From the sequence record ON645936.1: a stretch of 64,000 nucleotides of DNA. One strand, given 5' to 3'. The notes beneath the pieces are model-generated. The model was not told the DNA's origin and searched no databases. It saw only the letters and a list, made by a program, of their open reading frames with translations. The DNA is from Escherichia phage N2. This document shows positions 46,991 through 62,971 of this stretch, one piece after another. The translations under genes were made by a program, and so were the position numbers. How positions within the stretch are numbered: position 1 is the stretch's first letter; each line of letters starts with the position of its first letter.

Positions 46991-47857
46991 ATGAAAAAAT
47001 CTAACACTGTTCAATTTAGATACATATATAAAACAACCGTTACTAATCCGAAAGGATTAGTACGTGTTTATATTGGTAAACATGAATCTAGATATTTTGA
47101 TTTAGAAAATGACAAGTATATAGGTTCCGGTGATTATATTAAAAAGATACGCAATAAACCTGGTTATAAAATAGATTTTGAAATAATTGAATTTGTTTCT
47201 ACTTATGAAATTCTTAATTTAAGAGAAAGGTATTGGATTTCGAAATATAAATCATCTGACATTCTATGTACCAATATAAAATCCGGCGGTGATGGTTTTT
47301 CATCCGAAGATTTGAAGAGAATGTGGTCTAATCCTGAATATAGGAAAGCTCAATTGAAGGCATTAGCTAAATCAACGTCAACTAAAGAATTTTCAGAGAA
47401 AATATCTAAAATAAACAAAGAAAGATGCGCATCACCAGAATATCGAAAGAAAATGAGTAATGCGATGAAAACTGCTTTTGAAAATGACCCAACATTAAAA
47501 ATTCGTATTTCTAATACCGTTAAATCTTTATGGAAATCCGATGAATACAGAAATAAATTAATCAATCATCCAGGAAAAATAGAAGGAACGAAACAATCAT
47601 GGAATGATCCTTTGATAAGAAAATCGAGATTAGATGCTAGAAATAAAAAACTAAGATCAGTTGAACCTTGGATTAGTATAGAAAAAGTCAAAAAACTTTG
47701 GGAGGATTTGGGAAAACCACATCCACAGAAATACAAATGGTTTAGAGAAAAAGCAATTGAACATGACCTCCCGGATGTAAGTTATAACGCAATTTTAAAA
47801 GCTTTGAAAAAATGTGATTATAAATTTACATCATTAGAGAATTCAACAATTGGCTAA
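46991..47857 (+). CDS. GIY-YIG homing endonuclease (Seg-like) inserted after gene 5
   Basis: 288 aa; YIYKTTVTN...VRVYIGKH...YIGSG; three WxNPEYR-type DNA-binding repeats. Confidence 0.75.
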   Translation: MKKSNTVQFRYIYKTTVTNPKGLVRVYIGKHESRYFDLENDKYIGSGDYIKKIRNKPGYKIDFEIIEFVSTYEILNLRERYWISKYKSSDILCTNIKSGGDGFSSEDLKRMWSNPEYRKAQLKALAKSTSTKEFSEKISKINKERCASPEYRKKMSNAMKTAFENDPTLKIRISNTVKSLWKSDEYRNKLINHPGKIEGTKQSWNDPLIRKSRLDARNKKLRSVEPWISIEKVKKLWEDLGKPHPQKYKWFREKAIEHDLPDVSYNAILKALKKCDYKFTSLENSTIG

Positions 47858-48386
47858 TATACTTCCAATGAGCGCTGATTTAGGAGAATCCATGGAAGGT
47901 TCTTCTATCGACGTCACCTTTACCGCTCAATTAGAAACGGGTGAAACGTTAGTATCTATAAATATAACTAGTTACGAAGAAACTCCTGGGGTTTTAGTAG
48001 AAGAAAATCGTTTATATGGAACGTATGAATCTGTATTTGGATTTGGAAATGATGCGCTGAAATATCGTTTAGATAATGAATTTAAAACTGCTTCTTCATG
48101 GGAAGACCTTCCAACTGATTCTAATACTCAGTTATATTTATGGAAAGCTCCTCAAAACCTCCAGAAGACATTCACTTACGAAGTAACATTAATATATGAC
48201 TACCAAGAACAAGGTGAATCTGGAGGTTCTAGCAGTAATTCTAGGTCATCTTCTGATACTACTGAACCAACGAATCCTCCAGCTCCAATAAGAAAAACCC
48301 TTGTTAAAAATTATACAAAAACTATAGTTGGAAATTGGAGTCGTTGGGCTAATAAATTGAGAAGCTACGTGTATGAGAGGCCATAA
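47850..48386 (+). CDS. hypothetical protein (5.1 position)
   Basis: 178-aa ORF between the Seg-like gene and 5.4. Confidence 0.5.
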
Positions 48387-48680
48387 ATGTCAGGATTAAG
48401 TTATGATAAGTGTGTTACTGCTGGCCATGAAGCATGGCCTCCAACAGTTGTGAATGCTACACAAAGTAAAGTATTCACTGGAGGAATTGCTGTTCTCGTA
48501 GCAGGTGATCCAATTACAGAACATACAGAAATTAAAAAGCCATATGAAACACATGGCGGAGTGACACAACCTAGAACTTCTAAGGTATATGTCACTGGAA
48601 AGAAAGCTGTTCAAATGGCTGATCCAATATCATGCGGTGATACTGTGGCTCAGGCATCATCTAAAGTATTCATTAAATAG
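48387..48680 (+). CDS. 5.4: baseplate spike tip PAAR-like protein gp5.4
   Basis: 97 aa; size and position match T4 gp5.4. Confidence 0.8.
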
Positions 48681-48688
48681 GATTCAAA

Positions 48689-61203: not shown

Positions 61204-61219
61204 GGGGCCGCAAGGCCCC
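61204..61219 (+). terminator. stem-loop GGGGCC-GCAA-GGCCCC after wac
   Basis: 6-bp GC stem with GNRA loop; weak U-tract. Confidence 0.45.
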
Positions 61220-61232
61220 AAAGGATTTTTAA

Positions 61233-62162
61233 ATGTCAGGATATAATTCTCAGAATCCAAAGGAACTCAAAGATGTCATTCTAAGACGTTTAGGGGCTCC
61301 AATTATTAATGTTGAGTTAACACCCGATCAAATCTACGATTGCATCCAGCGTGCCCTAGAATTATACGGTGAATACCATTTTGATGGACTTAACAAAGGT
61401 TTTCATGTATTTTATGTAGGAGATGACGAGGAAAAATATAAGACCGGAGTCTTCGATTTAAGAGGTTCAAATGTATTCGCAGTAACTCGCATTCTCCGCA
61501 CGAATGTTGGATCAATAACGTCAATGGACGGAAACGCTACATATCCATGGTTTACTGACTTTCTTTTGGGAATGGCTGGTATTAATGGTGGCATGGGGAC
61601 TTCTTGTAATAGATTTTATGGACCAAATGCCTTTGGAGCTGATTTAGGGTATTTTACCCAGCTTACCAGTTACATGGGAATGATGCAAGATATGCTTTCG
61701 CCTATTCCAGATTTTTGGTTTAATTCAGCAAATGAACAACTCAAAGTCATGGGAAACTTCCAAAAATACGATTTAATTATCGTAGAAAGCTGGACTAAAT
61801 CATATATTGATACTAATAAAATGGTTGGAAATACAGTAGGATATGGAACAGTCGGTCCACAAGATAGCTGGTCATTATCTGAACGATATAATAACCCAGA
61901 CCACAATTTAGTTGGTCGCGTTGTTGGTCAAGATCCAAATGTTAAGCAAGGCGCTTATAATAATCGTTGGGTGAAAGACTATGCTACAGCTTTAGCTAAA
62001 GAATTAAATGGCCAAATTTTAGCACGTCACCAAGGCATGATGCTTCCTGGAGGTGTTACAATTGATGGGCAACGCTTAATAGAAGAAGCACGATTGGAAA
62101 AAGAAGCATTGCGCGAAGAACTATACTTGCTCGATCCTCCAGTGGGAGTGTTAGTTGGATGA
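61233..62162 (+). CDS. 13: neck protein gp13
   Basis: 309 aa, as T4 gp13. Confidence 0.9.
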
Positions 62163-62971
62163 ATTATACTAAAATTTACGACTCTCTTATAGAAAGATCT
62201 CTTAAAAGAGGTCTTAATAAGAAAAAATTAGATTATTATACAGAATCACACCATATTGTCCCAAAATCCATGGGAGGAGATGATTCTAGAGAAAACAAGG
62301 TTTTACTGACAGCAAGAGAACACTATTTTGCACATGAGCTTCTTTTTAAAATACACCGAAATTCTGAAATGGCTTATGCCTTAATAAAATTCTCCAAGGG
62401 TACAAAAGAGCAGAGAATTGTAAGTAAAGATTACGGATGGATTAAAGAGGAAACATCTAAAATTAGGTCAGAAACCATTAAAAAGTTTTGGGCGAATCTA
62501 TCACCAAATTTAAAACAGGAACGAATTAAAAAAGCCGGAAAAGGCATTAAAAAAACTAAATCTTTATGGACAGATGAAAAGAGAAAAGAAGTTAATGCAA
62601 ATATTCGAAAAGCTTCAGTGAAATATTTGGAATCGTTATCAGAAAACGAAATGTTAGAATATAAAGAAAGATGTTCTAAACAGATGAAAGATTTTTGGTC
62701 TGAGCTTAAAAGTGACCCCCAAAAATACGAAAAGTATTTAAATAAACTATCTAAGGGTCTTGCAAAAGTCGAAAAGAGAAATTGCCCGCATTGCGGAATT
62801 ATATGTGATGTAGGAAATTATGGAAAATACCACGGCGATAAATGCAAAGTTATCACGGGTGTATCTCATAGCAGAGAAAAATTAAAATGCCCGCACTGTT
62901 CTAAAATCATGGATAAGTCTCACGCTAAAAGATACCATTTTGACAATTGCAAATTTAAGAAGGTCGAATAA
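62159..62971 (+). CDS. HNH homing endonuclease inserted between neck genes 13 and 14
   Basis: 270 aa; HNH motif [12 protein letters not shown]...N...EH; C-terminal CPHCG...YHGDKC / CPHCS...RYHFDNC zinc-finger modules; 4-nt overlap with gene 13. Confidence 0.75.

Follow-up and report, generated by a model that had tools for sequence, protein, structure and literature searches.

The window that we analyzed is a 64,000-nucleotide (nt) stretch of the genome of Escherichia phage N2 (ON645936.1). Here we consider two open reading frames (ORFs) in its late structural module: a GIY-YIG ORF next to gene 5 and an HNH ORF next to gene 13. From comparisons of sequences, we think that these are probably two independent, optional, and free-standing homing endonuclease cassettes from the gene pool of the T-even phages, and that they are the same two cassettes that phage T6 carries. 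The other readings that we considered (weapons for competition between phages, inactive genes, ancestral genes, or a packaging factor) are less likely.

The window is from a T4-like coliphage. It is collinear with T4 from ~33.3 to 95.6 kb, with ~95% identity; many Tequatrovirus records match it at ~95-96%, and none of them is identical. Around the two endonuclease genes, the order of genes is 5, 5.1, 5.4, 6-12, wac, 13, and 14. Relative to T4, the region from gene 5 to gene 14 differs by the two insertions and by the absence of segC and 5.3.

The cassette at the gene 5/5.1 junction

The features at this junction are:

45242-46972, + strand: gene 5 (baseplate hub / tail lysozyme); the stop codon, TAA, is at 46970-46972
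46948-46972, + strand: recoded gene 5 tail, TAGCCGTATAGACGTAGGTTTATAA, in place of the T4-type ATCGAGGATTGAC; 10 of 19 aligned nt are changed
46968-46975, + strand: T4 late-promoter consensus, TATAAATA, which spans the gene 5 stop
46981-46987, + strand: Shine-Dalgarno sequence GAGGTGA of the GIY-YIG ORF, in the loop of a weak 8-bp hairpin at 46973-46992, of which the 5' arm overlaps the promoter
46991-47857, + strand: GIY-YIG endonuclease ORF (288 amino acids, aa), which carries RYIYK...VYIGK
47818-47825, + strand: TTATAAAT, which repeats 46967-46974 in direct orientation; the deletion in scar alleles has these two copies as its endpoints (see below)
47849-47857, + strand: ATTGGCTAA, the original final two codons and stop of a T4-type gene 5, now the end of the endonuclease ORF
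47892-48386, + strand: gene 5.1, with its native ribosome-binding site untouched
48387-48680, + strand: gene 5.4 (PAAR)

To find the edges of the insertion, we compared this junction with its T4-type counterpart. In T4-type genomes, gene 5 ends with GATGG, then ATCGAGGATTGAC, then ATTGGCTAA. In cassette-bearing genomes, GATGG is followed by TAGCCGTATAGACGTAGGTTTATAAATAATTCAGAGGTGAATT, which leads into the ATG of the endonuclease ORF, and ATTGGCTAA comes only after the body of that ORF. ATTGGCTAA marks the right edge of the insertion, the cassette is 46948-47848, and it substitutes 13 nt of gene 5, with its insertion point 13 nt ahead of that gene's end. The endonuclease ORF terminates on what used to be the stop codon of gene 5.

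The product of gene 5 is 576 aa long in the window vs. 575 aa in genomes without the endonuclease gene. Its C-terminus is ..SRIDVGL in the window vs. ..SRIDIG in T4. The added leucine codon, the gene 5 stop, and the ATA that follows make up TATAAATA. The initial annotation placed a GIY-YIG gene directly after gene 5, with a late promoter over the gene 5 stop. The coordinates that we read from the sequence agree with both statements, and TATAAATA does contain the TAA of gene 5. For gene 5.1, a start at TTG 47850 had been given, which should be corrected: the true start is the ATG at 47892. Gene 5.4 directly follows 5.1 because T4's segC and 5.3 are absent. (T4's segC is at a different place, between 5.1 and 5.3 instead of between 5 and 5.1.)

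The cassette at the gene 13/14 junction

The features at this junction are:

61233-62162, + strand: gene 13 (neck protein)
62142-62162, + strand: recoded gene 13 tail, GTGGGAGTGTTAGTTGGATGA (..PPVGVLVG and stop), in place of the T4-type TTTGGAATTTTGGTAGGTTAA (..PPFGILVG and stop)
62159-62971, + strand: HNH endonuclease ORF (270 aa), which overlaps gene 13 by 4 nt (ATGA); its stop TAA is at 62969-62971
62973-63743, + strand: gene 14 (neck protein; Pfam T4_neck-protein, E = 1e-138)

The T4-type junction reads CCTCCA, then TTTGGAATTTTGGTAGGT, then TAATATG. In genomes with the HNH gene, CCTCCA is followed by GTGGGAGTGTTAGTTGGATGA, the rest of the ORF up to GTCGAA, and then the same TAATATG. The cassette is 62142-62968, and the stop of the endonuclease occupies the position of T4's gene 13 stop. 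The last six codons of gene 13 are recoded within the cassette, from FGILVG to VGVLVG, and the recoded tail contains GGGAG, 10 nt 5' of the endonuclease's ATG. This tail resembles a Mosigvirus-type end of gene 13 (..GVLVG with GGATGA). At the other end of the cassette, AAGAAGG (62957-62963), which is within the final codons of the endonuclease, takes the place of the purine-rich sequence upstream of gene 14. Just 1 nt separates the end of the HNH ORF from the ATG of gene 14 (62973).

As the initial annotation had it, genes 13 and 14 have the HNH gene between them, with an overlap of 4 nt on the side of gene 13 and a gap of 1 nt on the side of gene 14. The annotation also expected no ORF there in T4, correctly: the T4 record shows none, and T4's genes 13 and 14 (94553/94555) are one base apart. 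What has to be revised is the idea of insertions into spacers between genes. The coordinates were correct, but both elements lie within the last codons of genes 5 and 13.

We also asked if either endonuclease might be encoded within an intron or an intein. We rejected this, as each upstream gene reaches a stop no later than where the endonuclease ORF starts. An Rfam scan of the region found no intron or other RNA family, which is a weak negative, as the nrdD group I intron was also missed at the gathering threshold. Similarly, we rejected the possibility that the HNH protein is a terminase-associated packaging factor of the HK97 type. Its gene is missing from ~90% of Tequatrovirus, including T4 and T2, and rather than being beside the terminase, it is flanked by neck genes, two genes upstream of gene 16.

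The encoded proteins

The 288-aa protein matches PHROG 314 (“homing endonuclease”, E = 1e-25). Because searches of Pfam and NCBIfam with the single sequence gave no usable GIY-YIG match (just sub-threshold matches to GerD and TIGR01453), we needed a profile of the family, built from this protein and its homologs. (A single-sequence phmmer search against the Protein Data Bank, PDB, was also uninformative.) The family profile matches the entire catalytic domain of I-TevI (1LN0, E = 5.7e-6; 1MK0, E = 1.1e-4), and Y13, Y27, G29, E79, and N95 are invariant in the family. The protein aligns with SegA-G and with I-TevI; the closest relative in T4 is SegF, at 31% identity. In a low-confidence AlphaFold2 model, residues 9-88 have the order beta-beta-alpha-beta-alpha.

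Residues ~105-275 consist of helical repeats of the form W-x-N/D-P-E-Y-R-x-K. These repeats are common to MobD and to two other proteins encoded in the window, the HNH protein at 2047 and the GIY-YIG protein at 19922. Pfam identified neither a NUMOD nor an I-TevI DNA-binding domain in this part of the protein, which we infer binds DNA. Judging from these similarities, 46991-47857 is a predicted free-standing, Seg-like GIY-YIG homing endonuclease gene and is the ortholog of T6's T6ncORF142.

The 270-aa protein matches Pfam's HNH_4 (25.6 bits, with a cutoff of 22) and PHROG 655 (E = 1.8e-52). By BLASTP, identity over its N-terminal 111 aa is 50% with MobB (4e-34), 46% with MobD (4e-30), and 42% with MobE (2e-22), while its C-terminus is 34% identical to the zinc-finger region of I-TevIII. 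H31, H32, N46, H55, and H59 are invariant across 50 homologs, and so are the zinc ligands C209, C212, H225, and C229. There are helical repeats and two CCHC fingers, the second of which is at residues 244-263. Many of the homologs also contain NUMOD3. The AlphaFold2 model is confident (a predicted local distance difference test score, pLDDT, of 89.5) and contains strands (residues 29-32 and 47-50) that precede a helix (52-66). A fold search with this model gave weak local matches to the HNH domains of Cas8-HNH, McrA, and GVE2, and phmmer hits from the single sequence to the PDB were weak. We conclude that 62159-62971 is a putative free-standing, Mob-like HNH homing endonuclease gene and is the ortholog of T6ORF154. 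The families that were originally assigned to the two proteins are correct, given the PHROG, profile, HNH_4, and Mob matches.

Expression signals

The motif TATAAATA is no more frequent in the window than expected by chance (13 matches vs. 11.95 expected), so its significance rests on its position over the gene 5 stop and on its conservation in three diverged lineages (see below). I-TevI, segB, and the mobE of phage Aeh1 have a late promoter directly upstream as well as a hairpin over the ribosome-binding site (PMC2988022). The GIY-YIG cassette may share this layout, in which case the 5' arm of the hairpin would be missing from the promoter-proximal transcript. A regulatory role for the hairpin is tentative because it is weak and poorly conserved. 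A scan for sigma-70 promoters found fewer sites than expected by chance.

The HNH cassette does not have a promoter of its own, and at the start of its ORF, we did not see any structure that is comparable to the GIY-YIG hairpin. The HNH ORF is presumably translated by coupling from the late message of gene 13. Several T4 cassettes that lack promoters are likewise expressed from host transcripts: segC, segF, and segG, together with mobA, mobC, mobD, and mobE (PMC2988022).

Occurrence in T6 and other phages

The initial annotation implied that these genes are unusual, and proposed to compare their presence in T4 and its relatives. Neither gene is present at these junctions in T4, but both are at the same junctions in phage T6 and in many other Tequatrovirus records. 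The T6 orthologs are annotated as “seg-like” (T6ncORF142) and as “HNH endonuclease” (T6ORF154), and the nucleotide identity is ~98-99%. Orthologs are also present in ACG-C40, fPS-2, CrRp10, YUEEL01, and others. In the record for fPS-2, both genes are annotated as homing endonucleases, and a predicted late promoter over the gene 5 stop is annotated as well. So, both elements are already-known, database-annotated endonuclease genes of the T6 type, and their location in the late module is ordinary for T4-like phages.

Both genes are present in a minority of records. We found the full-length GIY-YIG ORF in 29 of ~504 Tequatrovirus records (~6%) and in 3 of ~155 Mosigvirus records. The full-length HNH ORF is in 46 of ~499 Tequatrovirus records (~9%), and it is always at the 13/14 junction. 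(The denominators of ~500 are the Tequatrovirus records that match the flanks.)

Outside of Tequatrovirus, the GIY-YIG gene turns up at the same 5/5.1 site. In the Mosigvirus phages ZQ3 and F2, a gene that is 86% identical has immediate flanks of the T4 type (CAATACACAATTGATGG on the left and ATTGGCTAATATACTTCC on the right) within a backbone that is otherwise RB69-like. This is the signature that would be expected from homing with short co-conversion tracts. A third lineage (L087 in our set of loci) has a 78%-identical copy with the same layout. TATAAATA is retained in this copy and in the Mosigvirus copy (L083).

Immediately 5' of gene 14, three other T4-like lineages have orthologs of the HNH gene (52-57% identity). 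In Gaprivervirus (SP18, VR26, RZ, and TH40), the gene at 13/14 is instead a Seg-like GIY-YIG gene of ~210 aa, named “segC”, and it is polymorphic within the genus (9 of the 33 records with an identity of 90% or above). Because this is an unrelated family of nucleases, it must have been acquired independently. Unrelated Seg-like genes at 13/14, in Gaprivervirus and in other T4-like lineages, are at:

L031, 3927-4562 (phage VR26)
L040, 4000-4584
L068, 355-969

Therefore, the 13/14 junction is a recurrent landing site for homing endonuclease genes.

At the 13/14 junction of an uncultivated viral genome from IMG/VR (UViG 2974741249; L061, 3478-5072), there is an in-frame fusion of a Seg-like ORF with a duplicated N-terminus of gp14. 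The fusion is surrounded by duplicated segments from the C-terminus of gp13 and the N-terminus of gp14. This rearrangement looks like a result of endonuclease activity or of repair.

Late modules contain endonuclease genes at other places too, such as T4's segC (5.1/5.3) and segD (23/24). Phage RB32 has a mobB-like HNH gene, which is not in T4, between the tail and head genes 3 and 2 (L076, 5533-6192). More broadly, homing endonuclease genes tend to be associated with essential and structural genes (PMC2988022, PMC10448857).

Linkage, diversity, and loss

The recoded tails are found only with the endonucleases. The recoded gene 5 tail is present in all 8 of the genomes with the GIY-YIG gene that we compared and in none of 6 T4-type genomes; for the recoded gene 13 tail, the corresponding numbers are 10 of 10 where the HNH gene is present and 0 of 9 where it is absent. 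In contrast, across flanks of 450-518 nt at both junctions, there are 53-205 polymorphic sites per flank (the value of 205, for the flank on the side of gene 5.1, is inflated by indels), and none of these differences is fixed between the two groups of genomes. For instance, the left flank in gene 5 (513 nt) has no fixed differences. In the gene 13 tail, just 19-22 nt contain at least 5 fixed differences, while the 450-nt flanks have none among 70 and 56 polymorphic sites. So, the recoded tails are part of the mobile unit, and directly outside of the cassettes, linkage has been broken by recombination.

Compared with their flanks in the same genomes, the endonuclease ORFs have 1.3-4 times less diversity. 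Nucleotide diversity is 0.011 for the GIY-YIG ORF vs. 0.040 and 0.034 for its flanks, and it is 0.018 for the HNH ORF vs. 0.052 and 0.024. These lower values fit a recent horizontal spread of the cassettes.

The GIY-YIG cassette is also lost over time, as deletion scars show. In phage 215Ecol030PP (L092, 1180-1240, read directly), the recoded gene 5 tail runs, across a single copy of the TTATAAAT repeat, into the final 32 nt of the endonuclease ORF. (The BLAST match comprises the last 40 nt of the ORF, which includes the repeat.) In this allele, the endonuclease gene is gone, and the predicted T4-type target sequence has been lost as well. In ESh36, LF73P1, and LF73P3, too, the match to the GIY-YIG ORF is limited to its final 40 nt, which suggests that they have the same scar.

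Since losses by deletion are documented, and since HNH orthologs are at 13/14 in several lineages, we considered whether the genes might be ancestral to the T-even phages and have been lost from T4 and most of its relatives, rather than having been inserted. This seems extremely unlikely. The known deletions leave a scar, but the T4-type alleles are unbroken, conserved, and scar-free. Among 63 sampled 13/14 loci from Tevenvirinae that lack this HNH gene, 59 have a tight junction. Ancestral genes would also not account for cassettes that are less diverse than their flanks, or for the T4-type co-conversion tracts on either side of the Mosigvirus copy.

Are the genes functional? The ORF is intact in all 8 copies of the GIY-YIG gene and in 8 of 9 copies of the HNH gene. 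The frameshifted HNH copy, from CJY920 (L079, 814 nt instead of 813), is from a record marked UNVERIFIED and could be either a sequencing error or a decaying copy. The ratio of nonsynonymous to synonymous polymorphism (pN/pS) is 0.04 for the GIY-YIG ORF and 0.09 for the HNH ORF, which indicates purifying selection.

T4 does have defective endonuclease genes (mobA and I-TevIII), so the two ORFs might be inactive, decaying, or domesticated remnants that do not cleave DNA. The CJY920 frameshift and the difficulty of identifying the catalytic arginine of the GIY-YIG module (see below) are in keeping with this. We consider it to be very unlikely, because the ORFs are full-length, their catalytic residues and zinc ligands are invariant, and pN/pS is far below 1. 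Remnants would also not be expected to be less diverse than their flanks, or to have moved between genera along with co-conversion tracts, as one of the two cassettes has.

How the cassettes might spread

If these are homing cassettes, then we propose that they would work as follows. The GIY-YIG cassette supplies a recoded gene 5 tail, with the extra leucine codon and the stop building a predicted late promoter. The HNH cassette recodes the end of gene 13 that overlaps its own ATG, is presumably translated from the late gene 13 mRNA, and leaves gene 14 intact. Late in a mixed infection, each enzyme would cleave or nick the genome of a cassette-free relative, at its uninterrupted T4-type junction or at a site nearby. 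Repair of this genome by recombination with the carrier would then copy the cassette into it, along with nearby markers (intronless homing and marker exclusion). The carrier genome would be immune to its own nuclease because the cassette interrupts the target and the left half of the target is recoded.

Several observations weigh against parts of this account. First, in alignments of the GIY-YIG protein, no residue lines up with the catalytic Arg27 (motif B) of I-TevI. (R34 is a candidate for this role, but other Seg proteins also lack an arginine at that position.) Second, the single-sequence search of the 288-aa protein found no match to Pfam's GIY-YIG model, its AlphaFold2 model is poor (mean pLDDT of 64.7), and Foldseek found no significant match for it. 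Third, the hairpin over its ribosome-binding site is weak (z = -1.7) and poorly conserved. Fourth, our search of the literature did not find a paper that characterizes either enzyme. Fifth, free-standing endonucleases of T4 often cut tens to hundreds of bp away from their own genes, so the target could be somewhere other than the junction. Finally, the recoded tails could be sequence from a donor lineage that was brought in by co-conversion, rather than a device for immunity; the gene 13 tail is Mosigvirus-like.

Another possibility is that the nucleases are kept because they benefit the phage, either as weapons that cut essential late genes of rivals (baseplate hub and neck) or by causing useful local recombination or amplification. 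There are precedents for beneficial endonucleases: the intron endonuclease of PhiPA3 (PMC11620839), and T6's SegB, which amplifies anti-defense loci (PMC13096335). The strong purifying selection would make sense if the genes were useful, and the HNH lineage has stayed at 13/14 even where gp14 is just 69-79% identical. However, purifying selection is also expected of a selfish element that survives by repeated horizontal transfer. Furthermore, carriage is just ~6-9% of Tequatrovirus records, deletion scars exist, and nothing in the sequence separates the weapon reading from plain homing. We think that a benefit to the phage is unlikely to be why these genes are kept.

A broader version of this idea is that the cassettes are more than passengers: the rewritten C-termini of gp5 and gp13 would serve both self-immunity and expression, and the nucleases, of which two unrelated families have converged on 13/14, would be kept as weapons that disable the baseplate and neck genes of co-infecting rivals. 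In gp5, the change from IDIG to IDVGL falls at the tip that carries the gp5.4 spike. This version is doubtful, and we prefer to view the two genes as homing cassettes.

Other endonuclease genes in the window

Eight endonuclease genes in 64 kb had been counted originally, and we arrive at the same number: 7 complete ORFs and one that is cut by the start of the window. T4 has 6 endonuclease genes across the matching span. The eight are:

1-350, + strand: 3' part of an HNH-type endonuclease gene (cut by the start of the window), with I-TevIII-like CCHC fingers
2047-2901, - strand: HNH ORF, 284 aa, 30% identical to MobD; between genes 46 and 46.1, where T4 has nothing
10547-11377, - strand: GIY-YIG ORF, 276 aa, with NUMOD3 and an I-TevI-like DNA-binding domain; in place of T4's mobC between nrdG and nrdD
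12676-13446, - strand: nrdD-intron endonuclease ORF, 56% identical to T4's I-TevII
19922-20641, - strand: Seg-like GIY-YIG ORF, 239 aa; in the nrdC.9/nrdC.10 region, not in T4; no match in Pfam
37677-38342, - strand: endonuclease ORF
46991-47857, + strand: the Seg-like GIY-YIG ORF at 5/5.1
62159-62971, + strand: the Mob-like HNH ORF at 13/14

The truncated gene at 1-350 adjoins gene 46, is on the opposite strand from its neighbors, and is not in T4. Its sequence is present in 58 phage records, in which it is labelled as HNH or as a homing endonuclease. The HNH protein at 2047-2901 has a C-terminal half with helical repeats and a terminal domain in common with the GIY-YIG proteins at 46991 and 19922, which points to the shuffling of DNA-binding modules between the HNH and GIY-YIG classes. 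Within the window, the nearest paralog of the gene 5/5.1 endonuclease is the ORF at 19922-20641 (28% identity). The ORF at 10547-11377 is probably SegH of Sandegren et al. 2005. Around the nrdD-intron ORF, the DNA of the nrdD region is ~87% identical to T4's, vs. 56% for the endonuclease ORF itself.

Some T4 genes are missing from the window: mobB (site at ~5734-5759), nrdC.4 and nrdC.5 (17589), mobD (23359-24322), and segC and 5.3 (48383-48388). At the position of mobD, there are two unrelated ORFs, of 153 aa (a predicted membrane protein) and 173 aa. In its 3' part (60800-61200), wac is strongly mosaic among close relatives, with 73-100% identity per 200-nt tile, while adjacent tiles are 95-100% identical.

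Significance and comparison with known systems

These results are of little general importance: they add two uncharacterized members to the well-studied set of T-even endonucleases. The additions made here are small and leave the overall picture as it was: recoded gene tails, a scar allele, co-conversion tracts in another genus, and 13/14 as a junction on which different nucleases have converged. The comparisons do predict target sites in T4, at ~79,650-79,700 (the 3' end of gene 5) and at ~94,520-94,570 (the 13/14 junction), and T4-type, cassette-bearing, and scar alleles are available as natural controls within the same species. They also show how cassettes can fit harmlessly within the last codons of essential late genes: by a recoded tail, by a promoter or translational coupling, and by a replacement ribosome-binding site for the downstream gene.

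The closest known systems are T6's T6ncORF142 and T6ORF154 and their orthologs, which have the same recoded tails and the same promoter motif as the window. The window has a different mosaic backbone from T6 and a leader that is 1 nt shorter, but there is no difference of substance.

Like SegA-G of T4 and I-TevI, the GIY-YIG protein has an N-terminal GIY-YIG module and an extended C-terminal region, and like them, its gene is free-standing and optional, with predicted late expression. It is just 23-31% identical to the Seg proteins of T4 and is longer (288 aa vs. ~140-225 aa), and its C-terminal half has W-x-[ND]-P-E-Y-R-type repeats instead of a recognized NUMOD or I-TevI domain. The insertion sites differ as well: 5/5.1 in the window vs. 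5.1/5.3 for T4's segC.

The HNH protein resembles T4's MobB, MobD, and MobE in its N-terminal HNH domain, and its gene lacks a promoter and presumably relies on host transcripts, as do mobC, mobD, and mobE (PMC2988022). Unlike T4's Mob proteins, it has zinc fingers of the I-TevIII type attached to a catalytic domain of the Mob type. For these two relatives, the activities differ: MobE nicks DNA, while the I-TevIII of RB3 makes a double-strand break. Also, the HNH gene lies in the neck module, where T4 does not have a mob gene. At this same 13/14 junction, the Seg-like “segC” of Gaprivervirus is similarly polymorphic within its genus, but it belongs to the GIY-YIG family instead of the HNH family.

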